DNA of 64,000 bases. Origin: an uncultured Candidatus Saccharibacteria bacterium (GTDB lineage: Bacteria > Patescibacteriota > Saccharimonadia > Saccharimonadales > JALRHH01). Both the position numbers and the translations under genes were made by a program. Below, piece after piece: positions 1-36,372 of this stretch. The notes under the pieces were generated by a model that saw only the letters and a program-made list of their open reading frames with translations, ran no database searches and had not been told where the DNA came from. Position 1 is the first letter of the stretch; every line of letters begins with the position of its first letter. The stretch is from contig CAYYUY010000002.1 in NCBI GenBank assembly GCA_964474995.1, positions 35,755 to 99,754 of the forward strand. Reading direction: 5' to 3'.

Positions 1-59
1 CTGTTACGTCAAAGCTCAAGGTCAAACACCACACCAACTTTGAAATCACCCACCATGAT

Positions 60-698
60 ATGTTTGGCATGATGTTTGAAAACGGCAAGTTTACTGGTAT
101 GGGCATACCTCAAAAGAGTGCCACTGCCAACCAGATTGATAAGCGTTTTCTTAGTAATGCTCCTGCTAACCGTATTGACGCTTTAGACTTATGGATTGAT
201 AGCCCACGCCGTGCAATTATAGGCAAAGCAATTATTGAGGAAGCAATTAAACTATTCTTTAAGCTGACAAAAAACAGGGACAATATACGGCTGTTGGCTA
301 GGGCAAACAAAGCAGCAGCAGAGTATGCAGGGACAGCTTTTTCTGACTGCATACTAATTGCTTGGCTACCTGTAGAAATCCACCTGTATGAGCAACTGAA
401 AGAATATATGGATAGTAAAGGCAGCGCACGCTTTAACCGCAAAAGGAAAGATAACTTACTCAAGGACTACACGGTTTCAGAAGTAATTGAGCTACTTGAG
501 TTTTCAAAACAAATCAACAAGGCGGAGTATGACAGCCTGACAAAAATCCGCAAAATCCGCAATGATATTATCCATAACGGCTACGCTGCTACTTTTGAGG
601 AAGCTGGTGCAGCCTTGAGCTTGCTAGAGAGCATTATTAAATCAAAGACTGGTCACACTTTAGCCCTGAATACGGGTATATCAATGAACCTGTTTTGA
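60..698 (+). CDS. HEPN-like protein (Swt1-like Rx4H motif); possibly 5'-truncated by the window edge
   Basis: C-terminal IRKIRNDIIHNG contains R-N-x3-H (codons 558-575), the HEPN RNase signature. The reading frame stays open upstream to position 3, so the true start may lie outside the window. Confidence 0.45.
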   Translation: MFGMMFENGKFTGMGIPQKSATANQIDKRFLSNAPANRIDALDLWIDSPRRAIIGKAIIEEAIKLFFKLTKNRDNIRLLARANKAAAEYAGTAFSDCILIAWLPVEIHLYEQLKEYMDSKGSARFNRKRKDNLLKDYTVSEVIELLEFSKQINKAEYDSLTKIRKIRNDIIHNGYAATFEEAGAALSLLESIIKSKTGHTLALNTGISMNLF

Positions 699-897
699 AC
701 CAGCCGACATTAACCAATAGCCCTTGCCGTGTCCTGAAACTTAACTAACACTTGTAGGAAAACTGTCAGGTAATTTCTGTACAAAATGAACGTGTTTTCA
801 AAGCCGTTTTATATCTGTTAACGGTGAAAAGTGGTGTCCGGAAACTCATGCCCTGAATTGGGGAGTTTTCCGACGAAAATGTACGTCTCCAGAAATG

Positions 898-1464
898 CTA
901 CTTCGTTTGTACTATTGCTCGGTCACTGTCTAGACCAGGCTTCCAAATAAGGTATTGATGTCCGTCTTCAACAGGTACTTGGAATACAACCTTGCCAGTC
1001 GCCTTACCGCCAGTAACAATGTCCCCAGAATTGAGCAAGTCGGTTATTGAGGAAACAATTGTGCTATCCAAAACTTGCCCACCTGCTGTCTGTATGCGGA
1101 AATCAGCCTCATTGTATGGCTTAGTGCTATCACTGGTGTTTTCTAGCGTTACATCAGCCACAACGTAAGTCTTCCCACTATCAGCTGTATCAAACTCGCC
1201 CAGGCTGGTAGCGTACTTCACGTTGGTAACGGTAAGTTTAACGCCACCAACTGTGCCACTTTCATTAGGCAACAATTCAACATCTTTTGGCTGTTTGTCA
1301 GCCCTGTCAGTAAACCTGTATGTCTTAGTGGTACTTGTTGCCGTTTTTGAGCCAGAAGCCCCGTTCTGCGTACCCTTATTACCCCCAGCTGCCCCACCAA
1401 TTACGACAAGTACAATAATGACTAAAATTACGGTCAATATCTTGTGCTTCTTAAACCAACCCAT
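898..1464 (-). CDS. DUF4352-like membrane-anchored protein
   Basis: N-terminal TM helix and Ser/Thr/Gly linker. The beta-rich domain with GKTYVVADVTLENTSDSTKPYNEADFRIQ...GKVVFQVP is typical of DUF4352. The start was moved to the second ATG (1464), which is preceded by GGAGAG. Confidence 0.55.
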   Translation of the reverse strand: MGWFKKHKILTVILVIIVLVVIGGAAGGNKGTQNGASGSKTATSTTKTYRFTDRADKQPKDVELLPNESGTVGGVKLTVTNVKYATSLGEFDTADSGKTYVVADVTLENTSDSTKPYNEADFRIQTAGGQVLDSTIVSSITDLLNSGDIVTGGKATGKVVFQVPVEDGHQYLIWKPGLDSDRAIVQTK

Positions 1465-1520
1465 ACTTAAACTCTCCATTTAATTTATATCTGTTAATGT
1501 AGCACACTTAATGCCAAAAC

Positions 1521-1553
1521 ATAAACAGACAGTTTATGTAACTAACTGTTTAT
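1521..1553. promoter_or_regulatory. Candidate operator in the divergent DUF4352/XRE intergenic region
   Basis: ATAAACAG (1521-1528) and its exact reverse complement CTGTTTAT (1546-1553), with an inner GTTTAT (1532-1537), sit just upstream of the XRE gene. Confidence 0.3.
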
Positions 1554-1571
1554 TATTTCTACTCTAGGTGC

Positions 1572-1799
1572 ATGAGTAATGCCCAAGAACAAAAACTTAT
1601 GAAAGACTTTGGTAAACGAGTTGCCGAAGTGCGCAAAAGTAGAGGTATAACCCAACAGGATTTAGCCGAACGTGTCAGTATGAGTGTGGTTGCAATTGCC
1701 TACATTGAAACGGGTAAGCGTTGGGCTAGGCTTGGTACGCTACACAAGATAGCCAAAGTGCTAAAAGTTGACATTCAAGATTTATTCAAGGGGTTATAA
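1572..1799 (+). CDS. XRE-family helix-turn-helix transcriptional regulator
   Basis: 75 aa. RKSRGITQQDLAERVSMSVVAIAYIETGKR is a canonical Cro/CI-type HTH. Confidence 0.8.
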   Translation: MSNAQEQKLMKDFGKRVAEVRKSRGITQQDLAERVSMSVVAIAYIETGKRWARLGTLHKIAKVLKVDIQDLFKGL

Positions 1800-1823
1800 G
1801 TCACCACTTGCTATTATGTGTAA

Positions 1824-2591
1824 GTGAACTTGCCGCTTTGCCCACATTGCCATAAGCAACTACCTAAGTTCCCCACACGCAAGGGGCAATGCCCCAAATG
1901 CAAACACGCCTATCTGGTTAGAACTGACCCTGAAACCAAAGAAAAAGTCGTAGTTGACGCAACTGGAGCTAAGCGAATTGAAAAGATATACCACAGGCAA
2001 GCAATTGAGAACGAGCTTGAACGAAACTTGAGCTGGGGTGTTGATGATTTTGACGGGCTTTATAAAACCGTTGAGAGCCAACTAACCGAAAAATGGATAC
2101 CAAAGTTTGGGCGTGGACCAGGTAAAGGTGACGTGCTTTGGGGGGTTGCTAGTCAATTAAATCTGCAAGCAGCTAAAGTATCTGATTTTAGCGCCATGTC
2201 TCGTATTTACTTTAATCAAGCCCTATATATACATCAGCTTGGCAAGGACTGTAACTACCTACTTAAACCTGCTAATGAAATGACCTTACGGGAACTGGCA
2301 AAAAGTGGTTTCAAAGAAGTGAGCATACTCGCTAACAAGGCGTGTACGGAGTGTGCCAAATTAGACGGCAAGAAGTTCACAATTCAGGAAGCGCTTGAGC
2401 AACAGATACTACCAAATACGCATTGTACTTTCAAACTTGAAGATTCTGCACCAACAGGCTGGTGTAGGTGCTTATATCAGGCACTGCCAGTAGACTTTAG
2501 TACAGAAGATTTTACCCAGACAGTTAGCCCTGCCCAACCACAGCCTACCCAAAAACAAGGATTTTTTAGCCGTTTCAAAAGGCACGTATAA
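1824..2591 (+). CDS. Zinc-ribbon protein with a C-terminal CxxC...HC...CRC motif (Mu F / SPP1 gp7-like?)
   Basis: GTG start. The N-terminus CPHCHK...CPKCKH is a zinc ribbon. The C-terminus CTECAKLDGKKF...PNTHCTF...WCRC resembles the conserved end of phage Mu F-like minor head proteins. This match is from memory and is weak. Confidence 0.4.
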   Translation: MNLPLCPHCHKQLPKFPTRKGQCPKCKHAYLVRTDPETKEKVVVDATGAKRIEKIYHRQAIENELERNLSWGVDDFDGLYKTVESQLTEKWIPKFGRGPGKGDVLWGVASQLNLQAAKVSDFSAMSRIYFNQALYIHQLGKDCNYLLKPANEMTLRELAKSGFKEVSILANKACTECAKLDGKKFTIQEALEQQILPNTHCTFKLEDSAPTGWCRCLYQALPVDFSTEDFTQTVSPAQPQPTQKQGFFSRFKRHV

Positions 2592-2632
2592 TACCAACCT
2601 GTTAGTATCTTAGTTATGGTATGGATATGTAA

Positions 2633-3346
2633 ATGAAAGTTAGGCTACCAAAACGCCTTAAAGACGGCAGACCTATTGACCCCGAAACTGCAAAAGCTGT
2701 ACGCAAGATACAAGATGACGCAGCTCTGAATAGTGGTAGCAAATACCGTCTTCATGTCTATCACGTATTCAATGACCCAGATTTTGACAAAGATGTCCGA
2801 GAAATACGTAAGTTGTTAGAAAGCTTCTACTACAAAGACATTTCCCTAAATCCAGACTCTGACCACCTACTAAAAGAACACAAACAAGCATTGTTTAATT
2901 TTGCAGCCAGATATTGCATTGACCCAGAGGACCTGCGAACTTATGCAGACGGGCTTTATGATGAGGGTGCAGGTTACGGCTCTGACATTGATGAGTTTGG
3001 CGGTCTTATGGAAACAGGCAGGTACGGATTGGTTTACAAAATTGGACCAAAAACTACATTGGAGCAGATACAAGCAGAGTGGAAAATGCACATTGAGTAC
3101 GCTAAACAAGACTACTACGGCAAGCGATCTGGTAAGAAGCGTTTATCAAAGTTTAACCATGAGCTGGTGTATGCGGTTTTCAAAGCACGGAACAAGCCAA
3201 AGCCTGATAGTTTCACCAAAATACAAAAGGATTATGAGCAAGGAACGCTAGCTGGCTATACAGGCAGCCGACATAAGTATGTAGTCAAAGATGACCTTGA
3301 ACGCTTTTATAACAAGCATAAACCCTATGTAAATACAGCCCTCTAA
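2633..3346 (+). CDS. Hypothetical protein (element 1 cargo)
   Basis: 237-aa ORF in a co-directional gene string with plausible composition. No motif recognised. Confidence 0.5.
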   Translation: MKVRLPKRLKDGRPIDPETAKAVRKIQDDAALNSGSKYRLHVYHVFNDPDFDKDVREIRKLLESFYYKDISLNPDSDHLLKEHKQALFNFAARYCIDPEDLRTYADGLYDEGAGYGSDIDEFGGLMETGRYGLVYKIGPKTTLEQIQAEWKMHIEYAKQDYYGKRSGKKRLSKFNHELVYAVFKARNKPKPDSFTKIQKDYEQGTLAGYTGSRHKYVVKDDLERFYNKHKPYVNTAL

Positions 3347-3419
3347 ACCCCTGCTTTACAAGGCCGTGTTATATGTTGTAATAGGTTCATAATGTAGTGT
3401 ACCCAGAAATGGAAACACT

Positions 3420-3683
3420 ATGAACAACATAAGTAACACACCAAATGAAGAAGCACACATCAGTGATTTTGGACTTGTTGCTGCTTTAGTTACTAGCGGA
3501 TTTGGCATACGGCGCTCCCAGCGTATCAATTCCCGTGTGTATTTCATTTTTGGTAAGACTAATGACCTGCAGAAGACCATAGATGACTACTGGGCTGGTT
3601 TGTTACAGGTCTATGCTCGGCAATACTTTGATAACACCAAAATGCTGAAAAGCCTTATCTATAGTGAGGGGCAAAAGCCATGA
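3420..3683 (+). CDS. Small hypothetical protein (DUF5659-like?)
   Basis: 87 aa. The pattern SDFGLVAALVTSGF...RVYFIFGKT resembles DUF5659, recalled from memory. Its stop overlaps the next start (ATGA). Confidence 0.4.
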   Translation: MNNISNTPNEEAHISDFGLVAALVTSGFGIRRSQRINSRVYFIFGKTNDLQKTIDDYWAGLLQVYARQYFDNTKMLKSLIYSEGQKP

Positions 3684-3925
3684 AGCTTACCCAGCCACAA
3701 ATCAATGAGTTTCAAACTCTCTATAAAGCCCGTTTTGGCACAGACATTGATTATGAAACAGCTGAGCTGGAAGCCACTCAATTAATCCGCTTGGTGAGCA
3801 TGATACAACCACGCAATAAGTTAAGTATAAAAATGGACATGGAACTTAATGACACACCGCTATCGGGTGAAGCCCATGTCTTGGAGCAAGCAGGATATGG
3901 CAAACCAGCACCAAAAAACAGTTAA
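3680..3925 (+). CDS. Small hypothetical protein
   Basis: 81 aa, ATGA-coupled to the upstream ORF. No motif recognised. Confidence 0.4.
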   Translation: MKLTQPQINEFQTLYKARFGTDIDYETAELEATQLIRLVSMIQPRNKLSIKMDMELNDTPLSGEAHVLEQAGYGKPAPKNS

Positions 3926-4403
3926 TGACCTGCTGGGCTTCTTTTACATAGCCTACAATCCAGTATTAGCTAAGATATTTGGACGTAATGAAGCCTTGCT
4001 ACTTGGATTGCTGCTTTATTGGCACGGAAGAGGTGATGACCCTGTGTGGATTTATAAAACCGCACAAGAGATTGAAGCCCAGACCGCCTTAACTCCTGAG
4101 CAGCAGAAGCTTGCTATTAAGCACCTCAAGGCTACGCCGTATGTTCAACAAATACGTGCTGGCTATCAAGGCGTACGTTACTTCAAACTTGATTATGAAT
4201 TACTGCTTAAAGACTTACCTAGTTTGGTTAAAACACACCAACTAGATGAGTTAGTAGCCACTAACAAGAAAGTGTTTAACCCACGAACATTATTAAGAAG
4301 AATACATAACAACATACAAAACAAGAATCAAAACAACACTGGCTATAAAGCACGTGCAGGTCCTGAAAGTATTGGTGCAGTATTTGCACGTAAGAAATAT
4401 TAG
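3849..4403 (+). CDS. Winged-helix-like DNA-binding protein (possible replication/initiator function)
   Basis: FFYIAYNPVLAKIFGRNEALLLGLLLYWH...IYKTAQEIEAQTALTPEQQKLAIKHLK looks like the N-terminal wHTH of phage/plasmid replication organisers. The start is uncertain (ATG at 3849, 3876 or 3897). Confidence 0.35.
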   Translation: MTHRYRVKPMSWSKQDMANQHQKTVNDLLGFFYIAYNPVLAKIFGRNEALLLGLLLYWHGRGDDPVWIYKTAQEIEAQTALTPEQQKLAIKHLKATPYVQQIRAGYQGVRYFKLDYELLLKDLPSLVKTHQLDELVATNKKVFNPRTLLRRIHNNIQNKNQNNTGYKARAGPESIGAVFARKKY

Positions 4404-4488
4404 TAAAGCAGTATATAATTAATAACAGATACGGCAACGGCTTTTTGAAGCAGAGCTTTCTTAAAGCCGTCCGTGAAAAGGAAGCAAG

Positions 4489-6156
4489 ATGAAAGACCTT
4501 ACTCAACTTAGATTCGGATTATATGCACGGAAATCCGAGGAAAACGAAGACCGTCAAGTCCAGTCAATTCAAGACCAAAAGGATGAAATGCAAAAAATAG
4601 CAAAAGAACGTGGCTACACTATTGTTAAAGGCGCAATCTTTTGGGAATCCAAATCAGCCAAAGTGCCTGGCAAGCGTGAAGAGTTTGATAAGCTCATAGC
4701 ATTGGTGCAAGAGGGCAAAATTGACGGCATACTAAGCTGGAAAAGCAACCGTTTATCCCGAAATCCACTAGAGAGTGGCATTATTCAGCAATTGCTGTTT
4801 GATGAAAAACTTAAAGGCATTGTTACTAGTACTAAGACTTACTTGCCAGAAGACAATGCTCTCATTTTCAGCGTTGATTCCAGCATGGATAGTCAGTTTA
4901 GCCGTGATTTAATGGTAGTTGTTCGGCGTGGTATGCACTCAAAGGCTGCAAGGGGTTGGTTCCCAGGTGTACCGCCTATTGGGTATAGGAATCACTATGA
5001 TGAGTTCGGTACACCCAAGAAGACCATTGTGCTTGACCCAGACCGCTGGCACATAATACGCACTATGTGGGACATGATGTTGACAGGCACGTACACCGTG
5101 CCTGAAATTGCCCGTTGGGCAGAGAAAAATGGCTTACGGAGCATTAAGCGCAAGAAAAGTGGTAACAAGCCCATGTCCGTGCCTACTGTTTACGCTATGT
5201 TCCACAATCCGTTTTACGTAGGCTACCTGCGGTTCGGTGGTAAAGTACTTAAAGGTGAGCATGAGCCTATTGTTACGCAAAAGGAGTTTGACCAGGTGCA
5301 GACACTCATTAAACGCTACAATCAAGGCAGACCCGAAGTTAATGATAAGCCTGACCCATTTCCTTACAGAAACATCATTAAGTGCGGTGAGTGTGGCTGT
5401 GCCATAACCTACAGCACAGTTGAGAAGACCTATAAAGACGGCTCTACGCAGCTATTTGAGTATTGCTACTGCACCAGACGACGCAAAGACTACAAGTGTT
5501 CACAGAGCAAAACTATCAAGCCCCAACAGCTTACACGGCTTATACGGGCTGAGCTGGACAAGTACACTATCTTGCCAGAGTTCTTTGAGTGGGCTTGTGA
5601 GTACTTGAGCGAGTTCCACGACGAAGAAGTAGATAAGCAAGAAAAGATATTTGAAGCTCAAACCAAGACCATTAGTGACCTAGAATCCGAATTACGGGAA
5701 CTGGGACGTATGCGCTACAGGGGGCAAGTTGACGACGAGTTCTATGAAACTGAAAAGTTAATGCTGGAAAACAAGCTGACTGTATTACGTGGCGAGTTCA
5801 ACAAACAAGAAGAACACAACAAAGAACTACGCAAACTGTGTGATAAATACTTCAACTTTGCCCGTTATGCCCGTGAAGACTTTGAGAGCCAGGAAGATGA
5901 AAAGCGCCGTGAAGTGCTTTCGTTGGCAGGTCAAAACCTACTGTACGAAGACGGACAACTCCTGTTTGAGCCAATAAAATACCTATCACCATTAGTTGAA
6001 AAGTATCCTGAGCTAGAAAAGCAATATCTTAGCGTCCAAACCCAGCCAGAACAGATGAAAAAGGACGCCGTAGCGTCCATAATTCAAACGTGGTACACCG
6101 GGCTGGATTCGAACCAGCGACCCTCTGTTCCGAAGACAGATGCTCTAATCCACTGA
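4489..6156 (+). CDS. Large serine recombinase (integrase) LSR1
   Basis: Resolvase catalytic domain (LYARKSEENEDRQVQSIQDQ, SWKSNRLSRN), recombinase domain, Cys-rich zinc ribbon (CGECGCAITYS) and coiled-coil region. The last 22 codons are antisense to tRNA-Arg. Confidence 0.85.
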   Translation: MKDLTQLRFGLYARKSEENEDRQVQSIQDQKDEMQKIAKERGYTIVKGAIFWESKSAKVPGKREEFDKLIALVQEGKIDGILSWKSNRLSRNPLESGIIQQLLFDEKLKGIVTSTKTYLPEDNALIFSVDSSMDSQFSRDLMVVVRRGMHSKAARGWFPGVPPIGYRNHYDEFGTPKKTIVLDPDRWHIIRTMWDMMLTGTYTVPEIARWAEKNGLRSIKRKKSGNKPMSVPTVYAMFHNPFYVGYLRFGGKVLKGEHEPIVTQKEFDQVQTLIKRYNQGRPEVNDKPDPFPYRNIIKCGECGCAITYSTVEKTYKDGSTQLFEYCYCTRRRKDYKCSQSKTIKPQQLTRLIRAELDKYTILPEFFEWACEYLSEFHDEEVDKQEKIFEAQTKTISDLESELRELGRMRYRGQVDDEFYETEKLMLENKLTVLRGEFNKQEEHNKELRKLCDKYFNFARYAREDFESQEDEKRREVLSLAGQNLLYEDGQLLFEPIKYLSPLVEKYPELEKQYLSVQTQPEQMKKDAVASIIQTWYTGLDSNQRPSVPKTDALIH

Positions 6157-6167
6157 GCTACCGGTGC
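6091..6167 (-). tRNA. tRNA-Arg(TCG), CCA encoded
   Basis: Hand-folded cloverleaf: GCACCGG/TA/GCTC-AGTGGATTA-GAGC/A/TCTGT-CTTCGGA-ACAGA/GGGTC/GCTGG-TTCGAAT-CCAGC/CCGGTGT/A/CCA. The terminal pair is G1-U72. Confidence 0.85.
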
Positions 6168-6270
6168 GCATTATGTATATCTTAGTTATGAAAGTACTTA
6201 CCTTTTATCATCGTCACTGGCATGACAGTGTCTTTGAGCATCAGTTCTCTTATTTCTGCAGCAAGCTGCG

Positions 6271-6289
6271 TCCACTGAGCTACCGGTGC
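6271..6289. repeat. Orphan copy of the first 19 nt of tRNA-Arg(TCG) (identical to 6149-6167), 122 bp upstream of the gene
   Basis: TCCACTGAGCTACCGGTGC occurs at 6149-6167 (inside the tRNA) and at 6271-6289. The orphan copy is abutted by TGCAGCAAGCTGC (6257-6269). Confidence 0.9.
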
Positions 6290-6374
6290 ATATTTAGTGG
6301 CCTAAGGTACTACGTCTCAAATATCAAGACCATTACAGCTTACCACCTCTGTTGAAAAATCGAAATAGTTCGAC

Positions 6375-10566: not shown

Positions 10567-10705
10567 CAGTAACTCCAATTAATCTCTTGTATTTACAATG
10601 CGCGGCAAAAAAGAGATTAGATTACACCATATCCCTATTCTAGCAGGCCAAAACGGCCATAAAAAACCTTTATTTTTTATACCTTTTGCGGTATATTTAA
10701 GCACT

Positions 10706-12226
10706 ATGAATACAACAAACGAGAAGATTGGTCTATTAATTTATCAGTTACGACAAGAAAGGGGCCTCACGCAGGCTCAGTTCGCGCGTAAACTTGGCAC
10801 CAGCCAGTCTGCGGTCAACCGAATCGAGCACGGCAAACAAAACCTCAGCCTCGAGACACTTGGGCGTATCAGCGATGTTCTCAAGAAGCCGTTGATCTCT
10901 ATCAATGGTGGTGCGATCAATCTCCGTATTGAAGGTGGTCAAGAACTGCACGGTAGTATTGAAACCAAAGTTTCCAAGAATGCTGCTGTCTGTTTGTTGT
11001 TTGCAGCCCTCCTTAATAAAGGCACCACTCGTTTCAAGCGTATGCCACGCATCGAAGAGGTTTACCGTATCATCGAGGTCCTAGTCAGCATCGGTGTCGT
11101 GGTGAAGTGGCTTCCTGGTAACGATCTCGAGATCAAACCACCAGCCATGCTTAACCTCGACAAAATGGATAAGAACGCTGCCCGCAAAACGCGTAGCGTG
11201 ATCATGATGTTTGGTCCACTCATGCACCTCTTTGACGACTTCAAGATCCCCTACGCTGGCGGTTGTAAGCTCGGTACACGTACCGTCCAACCACACTTGT
11301 ATGCACTCGAAGAATTCGGTGTTAACATTGTCGCCAAAACTGGTCACTACCACGTAACTGTCGACAAGAAACAACCCGAAGAGATCGTCCTCTATGAATC
11401 TGGTGATACCACTACCGAAAACGTCATCATGGCTGCCGCTCGTTATGACGGTGAAGTGACCATCAAGATGGCTAGCGCCAACTACATGGTTCAGGACCTC
11501 TGTATTTTCCTCAAGAAACTCGGTGTGAAAATCGAAGGCATCGGCACCAGCACACTCAAGGTTCGTGGCGTCAAAGAGATCAAAAAGAATGTGACTTATA
11601 GTCCAAGCGAAGACCCAATTGAGTCAATGACCTTCATTGCAGCTGCCGTGGCAACCAATTCAGAACTTACCGTTACGCGTTCACCAATTGAATTCCTCGA
11701 ACTTGAAATCCTCAAGTGCCGCAAGATGGGCCTCGTCGTTGATGTCTCTCCAAAATACAAAGCTGATAACGGTCACACCGACCTGGCGGACATCACCGTC
11801 CACAAACACAATGGAACACTCCGTGCACTGGAAGAAAAGATCTATGCCCGTCCATTCCCTGGTCTAAATATCGACAACTTGCCATATTTTGTACCAATCG
11901 CAGCAGTCGCCAAAGGCCGCACCCTAATCCACGACTGGGTCTACGAAGAACGCGCCTTGTATTACACCGAAATGCGTAAGCTCGGTGTCAACGTAACATT
12001 GGCCGATCCACATCGTGCGTATATTGACGGCCCAACCAAATGGGACGCTGCAGATATCGTCTGCCCTCCTGCCCTGCGCCCCGCAGTTTTACTACTTATT
12101 GGTATGCTTGCAGCCAATGGCACATCCATCCTCCGCAACATCTACTCAATCAATCGCGGCTACGAAGACCTCGCTGAACGCCTCAACGCCATTGGTGCCA
12201 ACATCAATGTTATGCACGAACTCTAA
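10706..12226 (+). CDS. murA: MurA-like UDP-GlcNAc 1-carboxyvinyltransferase with N-terminal XRE HTH domain (fusion)
   Basis: Residues 1-60 are an HTH (LRQERGLTQAQFARKLGTSQSAVNRIEHGKQ). The rest is colinear with MurA. It retains KNAA (Lys22 equivalent), GGCKLGTR (catalytic Cys115 equivalent), NIDNLP (Asp305 equivalent) and RGYEDL. The start was set at MNTTNEK, and the 36-codon upstream extension was rejected. Confidence 0.75.
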   Translation: MNTTNEKIGLLIYQLRQERGLTQAQFARKLGTSQSAVNRIEHGKQNLSLETLGRISDVLKKPLISINGGAINLRIEGGQELHGSIETKVSKNAAVCLLFAALLNKGTTRFKRMPRIEEVYRIIEVLVSIGVVVKWLPGNDLEIKPPAMLNLDKMDKNAARKTRSVIMMFGPLMHLFDDFKIPYAGGCKLGTRTVQPHLYALEEFGVNIVAKTGHYHVTVDKKQPEEIVLYESGDTTTENVIMAAARYDGEVTIKMASANYMVQDLCIFLKKLGVKIEGIGTSTLKVRGVKEIKKNVTYSPSEDPIESMTFIAAAVATNSELTVTRSPIEFLELEILKCRKMGLVVDVSPKYKADNGHTDLADITVHKHNGTLRALEEKIYARPFPGLNIDNLPYFVPIAAVAKGRTLIHDWVYEERALYYTEMRKLGVNVTLADPHRAYIDGPTKWDAADIVCPPALRPAVLLLIGMLAANGTSILRNIYSINRGYEDLAERLNAIGANINVMHEL

Positions 12227-22726: not shown

Positions 22727-22802
22727 TTTTTAAATTTTAGACTCTTATACATAAGAGTAATGACCTCTGGTATTAATGTCAAGTATTTCGTTGTCATAAT
22801 AA

Positions 22803-22836
22803 CCAAACAAAAAACCAGTCACCAGGACTGGTTTTT
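22803..22836 (-). terminator. Rho-independent (bidirectional-looking) terminator
   Basis: AAAACCAGTC-ACCAG-GACTGGTTTT forms a 10-bp stem flanked by A- and T-runs. It separates the tRNA-His region from the WxL operon promoter. Confidence 0.65.
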
Positions 22837-22840
22837 TGTT

Positions 22841-22859
22841 TGGGGCGAGCTATGGGGAT
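22841..22859. repeat. Orphan copy of the tRNA-His 3' end (identical to 23013-23031)
   Basis: TGGGGCGAGCTATGGGGAT occurs at both positions, 172 bp apart in direct orientation. This is an att-scar-like arrangement. Confidence 0.9.
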
Positions 22860-23012
22860 CGCCTCGCCAGCAGAACAAAATGTTCTGCCTAGGCGACCCC
22901 AAGCACCTTCGGCGCTTCTGAGGCAAGGGTCCGGAATATGCCACTGGCATATTCGTTCAATCCCCACATAACAACCATATAAAAAACGCCACACAAGGTG
23001 ACGTTTTTTATA

Positions 23013-23090
23013 TGGGGCGAGCTATGGGGATTGAACCCACGACCTCCGGAACCACAACCCGGCGCTCTAACCAACTGAGCTAAGCCCGCC
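23013..23090 (-). tRNA. tRNA-His(GTG) with encoded G-1 and CCA
   Basis: Hand fold: G(-1)/GCGGGCT/TA/GCTC-AGTTGGTTA-GAGC/G/CCGGG-TTGTGGT-TCCGG/AGGTC/GTGGG-TTCAATC-CCCAT/AGCTCGC/C/CCA. The extra 5' G opposite C73 is the His identity element. Confidence 0.88.
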
Positions 23091-23185
23091 ATATTATCTT
23101 AAAATGTACGTTTTTCTGGACTTATAATCTAATCATGTTGGTTAGATCGCCAGGGCGCAGCCATTCAATTCTTGCAGCAAGCTGC

Positions 23186-23206
23186 ACCAACTGGGCTAAG
23201 TTCGCC
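23186..23206. repeat. Diverged orphan copy (18/21) of the tRNA-His 5' segment, 116 bp upstream of the gene
   Basis: ACCAACTGGGCTAAGTTCGCC versus ACCAACTGAGCTAAGCCCGCC (23070-23090). It is abutted by the same TGCAGCAAGCTGC 13-mer (23173-23185) as at 6257-6269. Confidence 0.8.
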
Positions 23207-23282
23207 AAAATTTTAAATAACAGGGGTAATTTTACCCTATCCTGCCGATAATAACAACTGTGCTCGTACAGTAATATCTTTG

Positions 23283-23359
23283 TGGTGCCCCGGGCTGGAC
23301 TCGAACCAGCGACCTTAGGCTTAGAAGTCCTCTGCTCTATCCAGCTGAGCTACCAGGGC
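23283..23359 (-). tRNA. tRNA-Arg(TCT), CCA encoded, weak anticodon stem
   Basis: Hand fold: GCCCTGG/TA/GCTC-AGCTGGATA-GAGC/A/GAGGA-CTTCTAA-GCCTA/AGGTC/GCTGG-TTCGAGT-CCAGC/CCGGGGC/A/CCA. Pairs 27:43 and 31:39 are mismatched, leaving only 3 Watson-Crick pairs in the anticodon stem. Confidence 0.7.
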
Positions 23360-23460
23360 ATGCACCATCTCTCGAATGTTAAATCAGTACGACTTAATTG
23401 TACCAGTCTACCTTGATGGCACTGGAAGAGCATCTGCTTTCTTCATTTTGCCTAACGGCG

Positions 23461-23493
23461 CCAGCCAAGCTACCAGGGCATGCACCATCTCTC
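23461..23493. repeat. Orphan copy (31/33) of the tRNA-Arg(TCT) 5' segment plus 14 nt of its 5' flank, exactly 120 bp upstream
   Basis: CCAGCCAAGCTACCAGGGCATGCACCATCTCTC versus CCAGCTGAGCTACCAGGGCATGCACCATCTCTC at 23341-23373. Confidence 0.9.
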
Positions 23494-23544
23494 TGTACCT
23501 TGCGACAATTATACCGAAGTTCCGGCATTCCGTATAATAGCGCT

Positions 23545-24345
23545 ATGCAGAAAGGCGAATACATCCGCGACAGACTTCTACCAAGCTCAATTCAGGCTGC
23601 CTGTGATCGACAAGCAATCACGTACCAAGCCTTCTCGGATGATTGGGTATTGAAGCTTTCCAAAGGTGGGCGTATCTTCTGGGTTTTTGGCTACAAGTTT
23701 GATATCAATCCATCTGCTGTAAGCCTCATAGCACAAGATAAAGTTGCAACGTATCTTGTGCTGGCTGAACACAATATACCGGCCGTGCCGCACATTCTCG
23801 CACGGTCATTACCCGGTGAGTCAATCAACCGCGCAGGCCTCAAGGCCCAATTCACATCCGATATTGTTATCAAGCCGCTGAGTGGTACCGGCGGTCGAGA
23901 TGTCACGCGTTACGCCGATATAACAGAGGCGCTGACTGTTATTGAAGCTAGTAATGAGCCTGCATGGGCTGTTTCACCATATCTAAATATTGAACAAGAA
24001 ACCCGGTGCATTGTCCTGGATGGCGACACTATTCTGGCGTATGAAAAACAGCAACCAGAAATCATAAATGGACTTAAGTTCTTCAACCTCAGCCACGGCG
24101 CAATTGCAGTCGACGTTGCCACCGAAGCATTAGCAACCGAGGTTCAACAGCTTGCCAGAGATACCTGCAAACAACTTGGCCTGCGACTAGCGGCTGTTGA
24201 TATCGTGACACTAACGGATGGCACACGACTTGTGCTCGAAGTAAATGATGGCTTTTCTATGGAATATTACGCTCGGCAATCCGAACAAAATAAAAATCGT
24301 GCCATATCTTTATATGACACGATTGTTGCCGCAATGTTTGCATAA
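23545..24345 (+). CDS. ATP-grasp family ligase (RimK/glutathione-synthetase-like)
   Basis: IVIKPLSGTGGRDV, central and C-terminal ATP-grasp blocks (LRLAAVDIV...LVLEVND). The start was set at MQKGEY. The 49 upstream codons cover the tRNA-fragment repeat. TATAAT lies 7 nt upstream of the ATG, so the transcript may be leaderless. Confidence 0.65.
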   Translation: MQKGEYIRDRLLPSSIQAACDRQAITYQAFSDDWVLKLSKGGRIFWVFGYKFDINPSAVSLIAQDKVATYLVLAEHNIPAVPHILARSLPGESINRAGLKAQFTSDIVIKPLSGTGGRDVTRYADITEALTVIEASNEPAWAVSPYLNIEQETRCIVLDGDTILAYEKQQPEIINGLKFFNLSHGAIAVDVATEALATEVQQLARDTCKQLGLRLAAVDIVTLTDGTRLVLEVNDGFSMEYYARQSEQNKNRAISLYDTIVAAMFA

Positions 24346-24346
24346 C

Positions 24347-24421
24347 TGGTGCGGGTGCGCAGAATCGAACTGCGATCTCAAGTTTGGAAAACTCACATAC
24401 TAACCGTTGTACTACACCCGC
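24347..24421 (-). tRNA. tRNA-Gly(TCC), CCA encoded
   Basis: Hand fold: GCGGGTG/TA/GTAC-AACGGTTA-GTAT/G/TGAGT-TTTCCAA-ACTTG/AGAT/CGCAG-TTCGATT-CTGCG/CACCCGC/A/CCA. Confidence 0.85.
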
Positions 24422-24440: not shown

Positions 24441-24554
24441 TATACAAGGATGACGGAGGAAACCGAAACTTGTTTCAGATTTCCGAGTACTCCGCCACCA
24501 GCGCAGCTATACAAGGATGACGGAGGAAAATGAAACTTGTTTCATGTTTCCGAG
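24441..24554. repeat. Two 47-bp direct repeats (24441-24487, 24508-24554; period 67 bp), each with an internal hairpin around GAAAC-TT-GTTTC
   Basis: TATACAAGGATGACGGAGGAAA(CC/AT)GAAACTTGTTTCA(GA/TG)TTTCCGAG. Copy 1 overlaps the TATAAT (minus strand, 24439-24444) that I read as the tRNA-Gly promoter. Confidence 0.85.
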
Positions 24555-28842: not shown

Positions 28843-28855
28843 TCGGGGTGAAAGG
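28843..28855. repeat. Distal att-like copy of the tRNA-Pro 3' end (13/13 with 38157-38169)
   Basis: An exact 13-mer is found twice in direct orientation, bracketing the island. Confidence 0.85.
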
Positions 28856-29021
28856 GCAATGCACTTCTGCGACTGTGCTCGAAACAAGTTTCTGCGTTCA
28901 GTCTTGAAGGTCAAACCATTCAACCTTCAATCTTTTGCTTAGGCAAAATCTTGGGTCGAAGGTTTGAGAACTTGAATCCAGGTCAAATAAAAAAGGCCTC
29001 CTGCGACGGTACTCAAAGAAG

Positions 29022-29465
29022 GTGCACCTAACTTCGGTGGCTCAGCGGCTGCACAAGCTGCTTGAAGTTGAGCCTCAGGCTGAGCTCATTGCAGACCCAG
29101 TTCGGGTGCGCCGCGTGGAGTGGCGGCTTGGTGAAGACGGAGTCAAGGAACTGATCGTCGATTACGAAGCTGGACTAGCGGTGCCCGAACTGCAGACCAA
29201 GTACGGACTGAGCAAGGGCTCGGTGCGGAAGCTGCTCAGTGATGCTGGAGTCAGCATGCGGCGACGTCCCCTGCCCGACTCGGTAGTTGCGCAGATCATC
29301 GAGTTGTACAAGACAGGGTTGTCGATCCGGGAGGTGGCGGCCAAGGTCGGAGTGCCGAAGACGACCGTTCAGAACTTGCTCGTGAAGTCGGGTGTGGTCA
29401 TGCGGCCGGCGGTTCGTTTTTCTCGTCGATCTGCTTCTGGGCATCAGCACGAGCTAGAGCGGTGA
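29022..29465 (+). CDS. Tandem helix-turn-helix protein, GC-rich (foreign-looking)
   Basis: GTG start. It has two internal repeats of the type (D/L)Y(E/K)xGL(A/S)(V/I)xE(L/V)xxK(Y/V)G(L/V)xKx(S/T)VxxLLxxxGVxMR. About 60% GC. The antisense ORFs are Arg-rich shadows. Confidence 0.55.
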   Translation: MHLTSVAQRLHKLLEVEPQAELIADPVRVRRVEWRLGEDGVKELIVDYEAGLAVPELQTKYGLSKGSVRKLLSDAGVSMRRRPLPDSVVAQIIELYKTGLSIREVAAKVGVPKTTVQNLLVKSGVVMRPAVRFSRRSASGHQHELER

Positions 29466-29888
29466 TGGCTTTGGCCAGTATGTGTAGGTCTACTGGTTTG
29501 CGTCTTATGCCAGTGACTTTGATGTTGTAGGTCTTGCGATGTGGCATTTGATAACAGATTAGCGCCCTTCCCTGATAGCAGGCTTATACAAGCCTAAACG
29601 CTATCCGTGGGGGTAAAACGACGTAGAATGTACTACATGTGGTGTATTAGCAATCAATCTTTGTTATAATCCAGATAGCCTAGAGAGATTTAGGCTACAG
29701 GAGGCGGAGTCTGTGTTGAGGTCTTACCAAAAACTAGTTCTATATCCTGTGGCCTCGTCTGCAGAAACAAACAATCCTACAAATTAGGGTGCAGGATAAA
29801 CCGCAGGTAGAAGACTGCTCGGTCAGTTTTCTACATGCCAATCCGGCCGCCGCACCACCAAGTACGGCTGGAAGAAAGAAAAGATCAA

Positions 29889-30095
29889 ATGGCAAAAACC
29901 CCACCCAATAGTGGTAAGTCTTGGTCTAGCAGCGACGTAGCAAAGTTACGTTCGCTAGCTCATGGCAACACACCAACGCGCGTAGCTGGCCTCAAACTAG
30001 GCCGCACCCCAGGTGCTGTGCAGACCAAGGCGTCTGAGCTGAACATCAGTCTCAAACCAACAAACCAATCGCCGTACGGCACTAAAAAGAAATAA
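29889..30095 (+). CDS. Small Myb/SANT-like DNA-binding protein
   Basis: GKSWSSSDVAKLRSLAHGNTPTRVAGLKLGRTPGAVQTKASEL fits the W-x3-(D/E)-x2-L...GRT...helix pattern. The start was set at MAKTPP; the track start is 29835. Confidence 0.35.
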   Translation: MAKTPPNSGKSWSSSDVAKLRSLAHGNTPTRVAGLKLGRTPGAVQTKASELNISLKPTNQSPYGTKKK

Positions 30096-30208
30096 CTCCC
30101 GGCCCACCCAGGAGTTACGAGTTACGACTTACGACTTAGCCTGAGACCGAGCTCAGGCCAAAGTTCTAAACAACAACCTAAGTATACAAGAAAAAGGAGG
30201 TCACTCAA

Positions 30209-30484
30209 ATGGTGATCTTGATTAGTTATGACTTGAATAAACATGAACGACCAGAGGCATACGCCAAGGTCAAGAAGATGATCGAAGACAACTCGATCAG
30301 CTGCAAAAAACCGCTCTACTCCCAGTGGTTCGCTGAAACAAACGACAGCGTGCAGACCTGGCACGAGCGGATGAAGGAGGTTACCGACGACAATGACTAC
30401 TGGTTCATCGTCACGGTAACTAGTACCGGTCATCAAGGCTGGTTGCCCAAAGCTGTTTGGGAGTGGTTGAACGAGCGCATCTAG
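30209..30484 (+). CDS. Small alpha/beta protein with Cas2/VapD-like N-terminal strand (function unknown)
   Basis: 91 aa with a strong RBS (AAGGAGG, 8-nt spacer). MVILISYDL...YWFIVTV has a beta-alpha-beta pattern reminiscent of ferredoxin-fold Cas2-like proteins. This is a weak call. Confidence 0.5.
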   Translation: MVILISYDLNKHERPEAYAKVKKMIEDNSISCKKPLYSQWFAETNDSVQTWHERMKEVTDDNDYWFIVTVTSTGHQGWLPKAVWEWLNERI

Positions 30485-30504
30485 TTCAAGGAAGGACTAA
30501 ATGA

Positions 30505-30537
30505 AAAGAGACTGCGCAATGCGCAGTCTCTTCGTTC
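30505..30537 (+). terminator. Rho-independent terminator
   Basis: GAGACTGCG-CAATG-CGCAGTCTC forms a 9-bp GC-rich stem followed by TTCGTTCT, 20 nt after the stop codon. Confidence 0.6.
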
Positions 30538-30829
30538 TGGGTGACTCCTACCTGTTCTTACTCGAATCACACGACCGGTGTAACAAGATGCCAAGGTCAT
30601 CTTACCGATCGGACATCGGGAAACAGGGGTAAATCACTCAAATACTGACATAAGGTACATTTGGTCGGCGTACTACGTCCTCAAACGAACCTGTACTCCA
30701 AACCTTGCATAGTCTACTACTTAACTTCGGTAGTATCAAGACTAGCTTAGATGCACTGAACTCACGGCTGGATAACCTTGTGCGGTCTGAACGTGCCTCT
30801 AGCATGGACTTTTTGCTATAGTAAGGTTA

Positions 30830-31033
30830 ATGAGTGATGTGAAATTGCCACCTCAAACATCGGCTACCGATACGTCTAATTGGGACAATAAAGTATTTAC
30901 TGCCCCTGTCGTAAGTAGTGTTAGTAAGATTATCAAGAACAAAGAACGGCGTGAGATGATACTTAATGCTCCCGAACCCAAAAGGCAAAAACGTTCTAAA
31001 AATCCAGATATTCAAAGAATCAAGAAGCTGTAA
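30830..31033 (+). CDS. Small basic hypothetical protein
   Basis: 67 aa, Lys/Arg-rich C-terminus, co-directional with the downstream pair. No motif recognised. Confidence 0.3.
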   Translation: MSDVKLPPQTSATDTSNWDNKVFTAPVVSSVSKIIKNKERREMILNAPEPKRQKRSKNPDIQRIKKL

Positions 31034-31069
31034 ATAACTAACGAGAAAAATGTTGAACCTAGAGAAACG

Positions 31070-31633
31070 ATGGAAGACTATACAAAGAAAGAGCTATTTG
31101 AAGAATTAGGTTCACTCAAAAAGTGGAATAAGCAAATGCTTCAGCAAGTGCAAGATTTTCGCAAACTTGGAGAGCATACAGTTGACGTAGATATGCGCAT
31201 GCAGAAAACCGAATCACTTGCCAAGAGAGCAAATGAGGACGTATTCACTCATTGGAAAATGTGGCGTTTTAAGCGGAAACGAGCACACCCGCTTATGATT
31301 AAAAACATGCAGACAATCAGCAAAGAAATGTCTGAGCATTTTCTTGAGTGTGGTCAGGCCTGGAAGTACCCCGACAGCCAACACATCCGTGAGAAAGACC
31401 CCGACCTATTCAGGAAGCGTGAAATTATTGAGGGTCATATTAGAGATAATCTGTTTACACTCAAGGATATGCGAGGGATTGCTCAAGAGTATGAAAGTCG
31501 TTATGGTTCTCACGAGCACTTAACCTCAGACAGAGCCTTTAAGTGGGTGCAGGTTCTTTTAGGATTCGTGTTTGGTGTCGCCTCATCTCTCATAGTTTTA
31601 TTTATCTCTCATATGCTGGGCTGGAAGCAATGA
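31070..31633 (+). CDS. Helical protein with C-terminal TM anchor (partner of a HEPN protein)
   Basis: 187 aa, predicted helical, with terminal WVQVLLGFVFGVASSLIVLFISHMLGW. Its stop overlaps the next ATG (ATGA at 31630-31633). Confidence 0.55.
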   Translation: MEDYTKKELFEELGSLKKWNKQMLQQVQDFRKLGEHTVDVDMRMQKTESLAKRANEDVFTHWKMWRFKRKRAHPLMIKNMQTISKEMSEHFLECGQAWKYPDSQHIREKDPDLFRKREIIEGHIRDNLFTLKDMRGIAQEYESRYGSHEHLTSDRAFKWVQVLLGFVFGVASSLIVLFISHMLGWKQ

Positions 31634-32259
31634 TAGACGACAGGCTAGACATTCCCTATGAGTCTGTTCATCCAGAAACTAAGCTGGACAAAAAGCTCCG
31701 TTTTTATGCGGAAGCAGACGAGCTATATGAGAAGTTCATCAAAGACATTAATGAATCAAACATGGATGGATTAACTAAGGCAATCTGTCTATTTAACATA
31801 AAGACCCAGTGGCTTGAACGTGCGCTTAACGATTTTTATGACAGGATTGCAATCACGAGCAGCAAGTCCAACCCTTACGTAGTAGGCGAGAAGGCTTCGA
31901 GTAAAGTTGCGAATAGTTTTAAAAGAAATGGTAAAACCGTTGGCTTCGCAGACTTAACACTCGGCACTAAACTGATAGCTCTTAAACTCTTTCGTTATAC
32001 TGACGAGGCTAGTGAGAAAAAGTACCAAGGCTATCTACAAGAGTTAGGTAATTTTGTTAAAAATAGAAACCAAATCATCCATAATCTTTTTACGCAGAAT
32101 CTGGAAACAAAGGACAAGATTAAGACAATCACAGAAGAGCTAATCCGTCTTGAGGTACTACTCTTAGCAACTGACCAGCGTGACAGCTTCTTGGCTAAGT
32201 ATCTCTTCGAGCACATGGGTGAGTATTGGGATTTAACTCTTGGCAATAAAGCATCGTAA
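31630..32259 (+). CDS. HEPN-domain protein (Swt1-like, RNxxxH)
   Basis: LTLGTKLIALKLF...LGNFVKNRNQIIHNLF. R is at 32065-32067 and H at 32080-32082 (Rx4H). The start was set at the ATGA overlap rather than the track start at 31543. Confidence 0.55.
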   Translation: MIDDRLDIPYESVHPETKLDKKLRFYAEADELYEKFIKDINESNMDGLTKAICLFNIKTQWLERALNDFYDRIAITSSKSNPYVVGEKASSKVANSFKRNGKTVGFADLTLGTKLIALKLFRYTDEASEKKYQGYLQELGNFVKNRNQIIHNLFTQNLETKDKIKTITEELIRLEVLLLATDQRDSFLAKYLFEHMGEYWDLTLGNKAS

Positions 32260-32499
32260 AAACTATCTACTTTCTGGGTTGTTAAGTAGTACGTGGGGTA
32301 TGGGAGGGACAGCCAAGCCTAGCGGTTCAAGTCCTGTTTATGGAGTACTACTTTAGGGCGTAAACATGCCGTAACGCTTAAACGAAAACTCCATACCATC
32401 TAGCCCTATGGAATCCACGGAAGCTAACATTTTTGGCTATGTTTAGATGTTACTGTTAGTGCGCTGGTTACGGATATTTAATGATATAATTTTGACAAT

Positions 32500-33483: not shown

Positions 33484-33636
33484 CTTATAGGCTACTTTCA
33501 GAACTGTTTTATAACTATAAGCAATACCATAACAATAACATAAGCATAAAGCCCAAATCACCCCTTAGTTACTCTTTAAAATCGGCGGATTCTAGCAGTT
33601 TTTGGATATCTACTTTTATATGATATATGCGTATGT

Positions 33637-34371: not shown

Positions 34372-34411
34372 GCTATTTCCCCTTAAAATAAAAAGCGACA
34401 ACCCACTAGGC

Positions 34412-34524
34412 TGTCTAGGTCAAACACAAAGAGTTGAGCTCTCTGAGTCTTTCGTGAGTTGCCGCATTTAATGCTCAACTACACGTGAAGAACTCACGCT
34501 TATTCTTTGTGTATAACCTAGACA
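34412..34524. repeat. 113-bp nested/interleaved inverted-repeat element in the intergenic region
   Basis: Outer arms are 34412-34432 and 34504-34524 (19/21 complementary). Inner pairs are GTTGAGC (34433-39)/GCTCAAC (34473-79) and CGTGAGTT (34453-60)/AACTCACG (34491-98), arranged a-b-a'-b'. Confidence 0.8.
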
Positions 34525-34703
34525 ATTACGATTATACAATAATACATCCAAAACTTGTGTTTTTAGGTCAAAAGTTAACTAATTTGGTCGCTAAAATTCG
34601 TTTATAAATCAAAAGATGAGTATGAACCCATCTCAGAAATAAAAATGCAAAAAATGAATCAAGTCCAGGGGTGATTTCGACAATGTTGGGGCATTATAAC
34701 GGG

Positions 34704-36130: not shown

Positions 36131-36132
36131 AT

Positions 36133-36315: not shown

Positions 36316-36372
36316 ATAACAATAGTTTACATTAGATTATAATTTTTGTACACTATTATCAGGAATTGTTAT

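Follow-up and report, generated by a model that had tools for sequence, protein, structure and literature searches.

Short non-coding cassettes carrying partial copies of the adjacent tRNA recur upstream of tRNA genes in Saccharibacteria

Within a 64,000-nucleotide stretch of an uncultured Candidatus Saccharibacteria bacterium (contig CAYYUY010000002.1, positions 35,755 to 99,754; hereafter the window), a non-coding cassette of approximately 100-150 bases lies upstream of each of three tRNA genes, opening with an orphan copy of the 5' end of the tRNA that follows it. This tRNA-mimic cassette is real and recurrent, and is undescribed as far as the searched libraries and literature go. On sequence comparison, the three loci appear to belong to a widespread family of short, non-coding, tRNA-specific cassettes in Saccharibacteria (Patescibacteria). 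The explanation preferred here, to which a probability of about 0.45 is assigned, is that a non-coding and non-autonomous cassette is spreading among tRNA genes whose D-arm reads AGCTCAG-YGG, supplying a replacement 5' end and leaving the tRNA complete. Two alternatives involving a structured RNA leader or a target-templated insertion are weighed below, along with a less probable origin as deletion scars and a very unlikely purely local one.

Five tRNA genes were located in the window with ARAGORN, all on the minus strand, upstream being at higher coordinates:

6091-6167, minus strand: tRNA-Arg(TCG), intact (ARAGORN; Rfam tRNA, 69.9 bits)
23013-23089, minus strand: tRNA-His(GTG), intact (ARAGORN; Rfam)
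23283-23359, minus strand: tRNA-Arg(TCT), intact (ARAGORN; Rfam)
24347-24421, minus strand: tRNA-Gly (ARAGORN)
38154-38229, minus strand: tRNA-Pro(TGG) (ARAGORN)

The orphan 5' copies claimed for the first three in the original prediction are present. The repeats pair 6149-6172 with 6271-6294 for tRNA-Arg(TCG) (offset 122, the tRNA part matching at 19/19), 23070-23091 with 23186-23207 for tRNA-His (19/22, offset 116), and 23341-23373 with 23461-23493 for tRNA-Arg(TCT) (31/33, offset 120, including 14 nt of 5' flank). Matches of this quality were reached in 0/3000 shuffles of the 300 nt upstream of each tRNA, and across the whole window the only equally close sites to tRNA positions 1-19 are the tRNA itself and its own orphan. 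No orphan copy was found in the window upstream of tRNA-Gly or tRNA-Pro. As had been proposed, all three orphans stop in the D-loop, past the conserved GG (GGA in Arg-TCG), and two of them are joined to an identical 13-mer, TGCAGCAAGCTGC, which is found exactly in the window only at 6257-6269 and 23173-23185; by simple arithmetic approximately 0.002 exact matches would be expected in 128 kb. At the corresponding place, the Arg-TCT junction holds a different hairpin, GCC-GTTA-GGC (23450-23459). The suggested relatedness of the spacers was also borne out, and extends to a further shared part, in that every spacer in the window holds an antisense copy of the D-arm region of its own tRNA. The parts of the three cassettes are as follows:

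6168-6225, minus strand: Arg-TCG proximal part, poorly conserved, with -10-like TAAGATATACATAAT at 6170-6184 (sequence)
6226-6242, minus strand: Arg-TCG antisense of tRNA 29->13 (GATGCTC...CACTG), 14/17 (sequence comparison)
6243-6257, minus strand: Arg-TCG linker, purine/A-rich, AGAAATAAGAGAACT (aligned with the linkers of 19 other cassettes)
6258-6269, minus strand: Arg-TCG hairpin GCAG-CTTG-CTGC, reading GCAGCAAGCTGC on the plus strand (also in the 23 metagenome loci described below)
6271-6289, minus strand: Arg-TCG orphan, tRNA 1-19, 19/19 (repeat comparison)
6290-6327, minus strand: 38 nt upstream of the Arg-TCG orphan, absent from sister species (L042 alignment; L060)
23090-23136, minus strand: His proximal variable part, with -10-like TAAGATAATAT at 23091-23101 (sequence)
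23137-23158, minus strand: His small palindrome (inverted repeat, 18 nt, 89% complementary)
23137-23151, minus strand: His antisense of tRNA 29->15, 14/15 (part of the small palindrome)
23154-23158, minus strand: His short sense copy GCGCC, 5' of the antisense on the tRNA strand (part of the small palindrome)
23159-23173, minus strand: His linker (sequence)
23174-23185, minus strand: His hairpin GCAG-CTTG-CTGC (exact 13-mer match)
23187-23206, minus strand: His orphan including G-1, with 3 differences from the tRNA (repeat comparison)
23360-23421, minus strand: Arg-TCT proximal part, holding the 14-nt flank 23360-23373 (repeated before the orphan) and -10-like TAACAT at 23376-23381
23422-23459, minus strand: Arg-TCT core (covariance model, 37.7 bits)
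23422-23432, minus strand: Arg-TCT antisense of tRNA 27->16 (in the core)
23435-23438, minus strand: Arg-TCT short sense copy AGCA (in the core)
23439-23449, minus strand: Arg-TCT linker (in the core)
23450-23459, minus strand: Arg-TCT variant hairpin GCC-GTTA-GGC (in the core)
23461-23493, minus strand: Arg-TCT 14-nt flank and orphan of tRNA 1-19, 31/33 (repeat comparison)

The similarity of 6290-6327 to the Arg-TCG proximal spacer is weak and not significant, and the reading that the promoter region had duplicated to either side of the core and then diverged was rejected more generally, being non-significant in most single-unit loci, with short flank identity only. The TATAAT-like promoters originally placed in the spacers were upheld in part: -10-like hexamers adjoin each intact tRNA (TAAGAT/CATAAT, TAAGAT/GATAAT and TAACAT), but a sigma-70 two-hexamer scan of the tRNA strand recovered no complete promoter within the spacers. 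The TAAGAT of Arg-TCG lies at -17..-12, about where the cassette-free sister species L042 has TGTAAT relative to +1, and the inserted DNA may accordingly take over the function of the native box; the TAACAT of Arg-TCT is at the same distance from +1 as the TAGAAT of cassette-free L005 (sequences read by eye). As a side effect on annotation, the ATP-grasp gene next to this cassette (23398-24345) is represented by a public protein of 309 aa (P0241) whose start falls inside the Arg-TCT cassette, relatives being 265-269 aa. The annotated start is probably wrong owing to the cassette, and the ATG at 23545, just past a TATAAT, fits the relatives.

The search for the motif elsewhere that the original prediction had proposed recovered the same architecture in other genomes. 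A metagenome collection was scanned with a pattern of D-arm followed by hairpin (AGCNCAGNNGNNGCAGCTTGCTGCA), which matched 32 stretches; the full architecture was present upstream of an intact tRNA in 23 of these, and the remaining 9 were ruled out as chance matches in coding DNA. The host tRNAs of the 23 loci are Lys-CTT, Lys-TTT, Ala-TGC, Ala-GGC, Ile-GAT, Val-TAC and Arg-GCG, giving ten tRNA types with those of the window included. Read on the tRNA strand, the consensus consists of tRNA 1-19, one variable base, the short GC hairpin GCAG-CTTG-CTGC centred on C-TT-G, an A-rich linker (e.g. AAAAATCAATAAT), a sense copy of tRNA 23-28, 1-5 bases, an antisense copy of 28->15, and 40-70 poorly conserved bases that close with a -10-like box, after which the intact tRNA follows. 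The sense copy of 23-28 and its complement in the antisense make up a small palindrome. The direct copy of tRNA 1-19 is often preceded by a few bases of 5' flank, and its end is constant, at position 19/20 in all loci. The antisense segment begins 25-34 nt past the hairpin start and matches its own tRNA at 12-15/15 in most loci; the own tRNA is the best match in 13/19 cases, with ties in the others, and the continuation of the antisense to position 15 could pair with the last five bases of the orphan. The period from orphan to tRNA is 99-125 bp and the insert is about 80-135 bp without an open reading frame (ORF), with nothing longer than approximately 105 bp between orphan and tRNA in any of the 23 loci. 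The D-arm of the host tRNAs reads AGCTCAG-YGG, and there was no cassette at tRNA-Gly or tRNA-Pro of the window nor at the Ser, Leu, Phe and Gly tRNAs of other loci, which have other D-arms. The cassettes are flanked by ordinary chromosomal housekeeping genes (gyrase, Mur ligases, FolD) and therefore occupy chromosomal sites.

A covariance model of the cassette, run over 250 kb of the window and fetched loci, returned the known copies alone and none in the loci of six relatives. In Rfam, only the tRNAs reached threshold and the spacers had no match even at E<=1, and a literature search found nothing describing such tRNA cassettes, so that with the phage, plasmid and IMG/VR collections discussed below, the earlier statement that no equivalent had been described still holds. 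Eleven IMG/VR matches to the hairpin alone were rejected as coding-sequence coincidences. Motifs noticed by eye (a small ORF from a linker ATG, box C/D-like sequences, an integron-like G/TT cut and a hammerhead-like CUGAUG) were dropped, as they are not conserved between loci.

The presence and copy number of the cassette differ among relatives. The sister species L042, with a GDSL protein 79% identical and the same MurA-SHMT-MurB-HTH-GDSL gene order, has tRNA-Arg(TCG) directly after GDSL and no cassette, and a third species (L060, GDSL 77% identical) likewise has a bare tRNA-Arg(TCG) directly after GDSL. At tRNA-Arg(TCT), the cassette is absent from L005, L048 and L041. The cassette thus appears, from these comparisons, to be lineage-specific and both gained and lost. 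Tandem arrays with a 109-bp period were found at several Arg-GCG loci, with two units in L026 and at least three identical units in L031, and one unit was found in L009 against two in L026 although the flanking proteins are 96-99% identical. One set of samples (Logan SRR8931222/39/41/42; L001, L002, L004, L043-L045) contains two related Saccharibacteria species (GDSL 79% identical), one with both the cassette and a recombinase island at tRNA-Arg(TCG) and the other without either. Position 29 of the tRNA is the end point of all these Logan contigs, three of which are identical to the window; an attachment site at this position was considered and rejected: the contigs of both species break there because the tRNA is shared, and with 31-mers the unique path ends at +29.

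Under the preferred explanation, the cassette would be selfish or semi-domesticated DNA that propagates by recombination at the tRNA 5' end, with the fixed D-loop breakpoint at 19/20 as the putative mechanistic site. Whichever copy adjoins positions 20-77 would give a complete, expressed tRNA, and insertion would be harmless because a complete tRNA always remains. Tandem arrays could form either by repeated events or by unequal crossing-over between the 19-33-bp direct repeats, and any recombinase would act in trans, as the cassette encodes nothing. The second of two models in the original prediction, a small cassette or leader spreading among tRNA genes, is the better fit and agrees with the ten tRNA types, the absence in sister species and the copy-number variation; its further element, the supply of a promoter by the cassette, may be read from the positions of the -10-like boxes. 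The first model, taken literally as scars of large elements that enter the D-loop carrying an entire replacement tRNA, is not supported: the intact tRNA lies within 99-125 bp of the orphan at every locus with enough sequence, the 3' side of the intact tRNA-Arg(TCT) is contiguous with native downstream sequence, and the island that holds the recombinase beside tRNA-Arg(TCG) has its junction at the tRNA 3' end rather than the D-loop.

A number of observations weigh against a simple spreading cassette, beginning with the empty sites. Sister species do have bare tRNAs, but these do not amount to the single clean insertion at 19/20 that would be expected. Alignment with L042 gives 154 extra bases in the window (6174-6327), bounded on one side by the conserved ...GCTGTAATGGTC and on the other by the six bases that adjoin the tRNA, with the alignment boundary at -6. 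The 30-38 nt preceding the Arg-TCG orphan are likewise missing from both L042 and L060, and no native flank was found beside that orphan. In L060 the flank is 15 bases long, CTAACAGTATAATAT, and both flanks in the window end in a similar way, with CTAAATAT preceding the orphan and CTAAGATATACATAATGC preceding the tRNA. At Arg-TCT, it is the upstream region of the intact copy, not that of the orphan, that resembles the native promoter region of L005 (by eye). Since these boundaries are unlike a single insertion at 19/20, the history of the locus requires at least two events or a different breakpoint. Furthermore, no recurrent recombinase or transposase was found in the cassette flanks, no full-length parent element among the 23 loci, and no cassette copies in IMG/VR, INPHARED or PLSDB. 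The sense and antisense segments also track the host tRNA: in L032, tRNA-Lys(CTT) has GAGCGT instead of GAGCAC and both copies follow (GAGCG/CGCTC vs GAGCAC/GTGCTC in other Lys-CTT cassettes), a tailoring that a simple mobile element does not explain.

The remaining difficulties concern RNA-like structure and retention. In the helix between orphan and antisense, non-Watson-Crick pairs are G-U in 11 cases and A-C in 1, which favours pairing on the tRNA-sense strand. The small palindrome always forms a 4-6-bp stem with a loop that, read as a tetraloop, is often CUUG or GAAA, and the first hairpin occurs in compensated variants (GCAG/CUGC, GCC/GGC, GCAGC/GCUGC). These features suggest constraint on a single-stranded sense strand, either a transcript or single-stranded DNA. 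The syntenic loci L010 and L032, with flanking proteins only 54-58% identical, both keep the cassette, which suggests selection, with the limit that both loci were chosen by the exact hairpin pattern.

A structured 5' leader or small RNA that regulates tRNA output and is kept by selection is a doubtful but serious alternative, and is compatible with a spreading cassette. The cassette would be transcribed with, or just ahead of, the tRNA; the antisense would be held by a decoy D-arm (orphan 15-19 with sense 23-28) and, with the decoy occupied or unfolded, could pair instead with the real D-arm over 14-15 nt, blocking folding or RNase P processing of the pre-tRNA. The G-U excess, the palindrome stems and loops, the compensated hairpins and the retention at 54-58% identity all speak for such a leader, as does the three-way co-variation of sense copy, antisense copy and tRNA. 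A three-way junction, consisting of orphan 15-19 paired with the antisense end, the hairpin and the small palindrome, is the minimum-energy fold in approximately 7/20 cassettes (z ~ -2), and the helices are preserved while the three bases facing the hairpin differ between cassettes (TAA, TGG, TCA, TAG). However, the stability of the fold is modest, and the cassette is dispensable, with close relatives lacking it at the same tRNAs and only some tRNAs per genome having it. Identical tandem units would be odd for a regulator, and the same hairpin and linker at ten tRNA types would still need a route of spreading. Antisense segments with palindromes of a similar kind also lie beyond terminators, 3' of tRNA-His, and at the distal end of a recombinase island, positions at which a function as RNA is improbable. 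In single-stranded DNA, too, two-base TT loops with a C-G closing pair (C-TT-G mini-loops) are stable.

The tailoring to the host tRNA could also be accommodated by a target-templated module, a combination that is again doubtful. Here a hairpin-linker of approximately 26 nt would enter the D-loop, copying tRNA 1-19 directly, 23-28 directly and 28->15 in inverted orientation, and the resulting leader may have been co-opted as a maturation switch. Every insertion would be tailored to its target and would leave an intact tRNA, and the leader RNA would form a decoy D-arm holding the anti-D-arm strand.

An origin of the cassettes as deletion scars is improbable. In this account, integrase-bearing elements would have inserted in the D-loop with a promoter and positions 1-19, then lost their interior, leaving immobile attachment arms of approximately 100 bp. 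Partial-tRNA direct repeats are the classic mark of integrated elements, and degenerate remnants with partial tRNAs have been described for tycheposon islands (bioRxiv 10.1101/2020.12.28.424599). The same genome also has two large-serine-recombinase islands at tRNAs, and a 172-bp structure 3' of tRNA-His looks like two joined island ends. Against this, all 23 loci have no more than approximately 105 bp between orphan and tRNA, and independent deletions would not give such a narrow range, nor identical tandem units. The recombinase islands that were seen join the tRNA 3' end (by L041 homology, and by the 13-nt 3' repeat of tRNA-Pro), and there is no clear association between recombinases and cassettes, with recombinase genes adjoining 3/~16 cassette-bearing tRNAs vs 2/~25 without a cassette. 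A purely local origin, by tandem duplication or template switching (e.g. D-arm fold-back) at each tRNA with no transfer, would account for the match of all tRNA-derived parts to the local tRNA, for direct repeats that take in some of the neighbouring 5' sequence (14 nt at Arg-TCT, 10 nt in L026), for both Arg-TCG flanks ending like the native L060 flank and for a sense-loop-antisense junction resembling a snap-back product, yet it is very unlikely and largely refuted by the shared hairpin and linker, since these non-tRNA parts (~26 nt) share homology among many genomes and at ten tRNA types and could not have originated independently. In most single-unit loci, the sequences upstream of orphan and tRNA show no significant similarity to each other.

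The recombinase islands bear on these alternatives and are considered here in their own right. A large serine recombinase of 555 aa (4489-6156, plus strand; Resolvase, Recombinase and zinc ribbon domains; PHROG 95) converges on tRNA-Arg(TCG), its ORF overlapping the tRNA, with small-element genes to its left; the same converging arrangement was found at two metagenome cassette loci. L041 has a related element, at a site other than a tRNA gene, whose recombinase is 80% identical. Its sequence matches the window across the recombinase gene and as far as TGGTACACCG, which is tRNA 68-77 in reverse complement; the junction of these islands is therefore with the tRNA 3' end. The recombinase beside tRNA-Arg(TCG) was accordingly rejected as the agent of D-loop insertion. 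The island occupies 1-6156 and runs on to the left of the window, containing a replication-initiator-like gene (3849-4403), DUF5659 (3420-3683), an HTH gene and a DUF4352/Sie-like gene (898-1479). L042 lacks this island and has YecM after the tRNA. The recombinase ORF runs through the terminator and the antisense of tRNA-Arg(TCG) before its stop, with a different tail in L041, and its C-terminus therefore depends on the integration site. No relatives of the recombinase were found in IMG/VR, and exact-protein look-ups for it and for the leftmost ORF returned no record.

A second island, of approximately 9.3 kb (28843-38241), lies at the 3' end of tRNA-Pro(TGG), which has no 5' cassette:

36346-38241, plus strand: recombinase of the tRNA-Pro island, overlapping tRNA-Pro
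32500-33483: HNH endonuclease of the tRNA-Pro island
28843-28855, minus strand: 13-nt repeat of tRNA-Pro 61-73, 9.3 kb from tRNA-Pro
28954-28968: antisense copy of tRNA-Pro 45-59, far end of the tRNA-Pro island
28881: C-TT-G-centred palindrome, far end of the tRNA-Pro island

The antisense tRNA segment and C-TT-G palindrome at this island end appear to link the style of the cassettes to the ends of true mobile elements; 5/8 of the 12-nt C-TT-G-centred palindromes in the window are in tRNA flanks. In L005, a recombinase was found at a tRNA-Gly without a cassette. Islands and cassettes are separate things, both favouring tRNA genes.

Comparable structures were observed on the 3' side of tRNA genes. 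Downstream of tRNA-His (22795-23031), positions 59-77 are repeated at 19/19, together with a second copy of an 18-bp-stem terminator, 172 bp downstream. This repeat is 65 nt and 78% identical, and the 107 nt between the copies hold a T-arm antisense (22955-22966) and several perfect hairpins, so that the whole mirrors the 5' cassette. In L007 (3900-3990) and L026 (~280-400), both read on the tRNA strand, tRNA-Arg(GCG) is followed by structures of this kind, in which the 3' orphan is broken in the T-loop by an insert of approximately 55 nt that folds as a long hairpin and is preceded by CAAG-CTTG-CTTG and an antisense of tRNA 46-53. Between tRNA-Gly and a divergent P-type ATPase gene (24441-24554), there are two tandem 47-nt units, 91% identical, each folding into a long hairpin centred on GAAAC-TT-GTTTC, a palindrome also present at 28881 in the end of the tRNA-Pro island.

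Among known systems, tRNA genes are classic landing sites for mobile DNA, and to our knowledge the elements that target them replace the 3' end and carry their own integrase. The cassettes resemble such integrative elements (prophages, genomic islands, tycheposons) in that a partial tRNA copy flanks the insert and the gene is kept intact by a part that the insert supplies; partial-tRNA direct repeats of 19-33 bp were found at the three window loci and the 23 metagenome loci. They differ in duplicating the 5' part with a promoter-like box rather than the 3' part, with a breakpoint in the D-loop, and in their size of ~80-135 bp, their antisense copy of the adjacent tRNA segment and their empty sites, which give no clean insertion point at the repeat. 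No integrase gene was found in the inserted DNA, which at 80-135 bp has no ORF and lies between housekeeping flanks. A further likeness lies in the arrays of partial tRNAs that repeated events at one tRNA give in tycheposons (bioRxiv 10.1101/2020.12.28.424599). The large serine recombinase islands share with the cassettes the targeting of tRNA genes in the same genomes and ends with tRNA-antisense segments and C-TT-G palindromes, but they are kilobases long, encode a recombinase and, as found for both recombinases (4489-6156 and 36346-38241), join the tRNA 3' end, the D-loop junction being on the other side of the tRNA; each also occurs without the other.

Miniature inverted-repeat transposable elements (MITEs) and cis-mobilisable elements consisting of attachment sites only are short, non-coding, multi-copy, hairpin-rich and dependent on an enzyme acting in trans. 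The cassettes are like them in all of these respects, including the trans-acting enzyme they would need, and in varying between relatives. However, no terminal inverted repeats were found in the cassettes, the direct repeat has a fixed right end but a length of 19 to at least 33 bp, the interior is tailored to the target tRNA, and no parent element is known. Folded single-strand recombination sites are known from integron attC and from CTX phage attP(+), which uses XerCD. An imperfect palindrome rebuilding a double-stranded target copy, bulged bases at the crossover and tandem units of ~60-140 nt next to a fixed site are features in common, but the cassettes lack a G/TTRRRY core on both sides, their junctions being GG/NGCAGC on one side and GG/TTAGAGC on the other, and no integron integrase was found in the flanks. 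Single-strand recombination at the cassettes would be pure conjecture. A candidate dif/Xer site at 6163-6190 was rejected, as its score of 20/28 is not above background (19/28 at unrelated window sites).

A clustered regularly interspaced short palindromic repeat (CRISPR) array does not fit, as the array units are identical and no cas genes were found in the flanks, nor do split or permuted tRNAs, as an intact tRNA of 61-70 bits follows each orphan. With small RNAs from tRNA-precursor leaders and trailers, the cassette would share removal by RNase P as a 5' leader, and it has signs of conserved structure; it differs from them in carrying a copy of the tRNA 5' end and an antisense D-arm and in having no Rfam match. 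We know of no tRNA leader with a copy of its own tRNA 5' end plus a D-arm antisense.

The closest relatives of the ATP-grasp gene of the window in the genome collection are in Saccharimonadales metagenome-assembled genomes. Elsewhere the window encodes LysM proteins, a sortase, a SpaA-type pilin and a MurA (10598-12226) in which an EPSP-synthase fold is fused to an N-terminal HTH_3 domain, a fusion kept in L041 and L042.

In practical terms, metagenome assemblies break at the orphans and arrays, which also mark strain-level variation and can cause errors in the annotation of tRNAs and ORFs. Some Saccharibacteria are now cultivable and transformable. If the cassettes are selfish, they would represent a new way in which gene-free DNA persists without harm in the essential single-copy genes that very small genomes carry, and if they are leaders, a new class of tRNA leader regulating maturation. 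Either target-templated insertion or a tRNA-mimic leader switch would, if true, be without precedent in bacteria.

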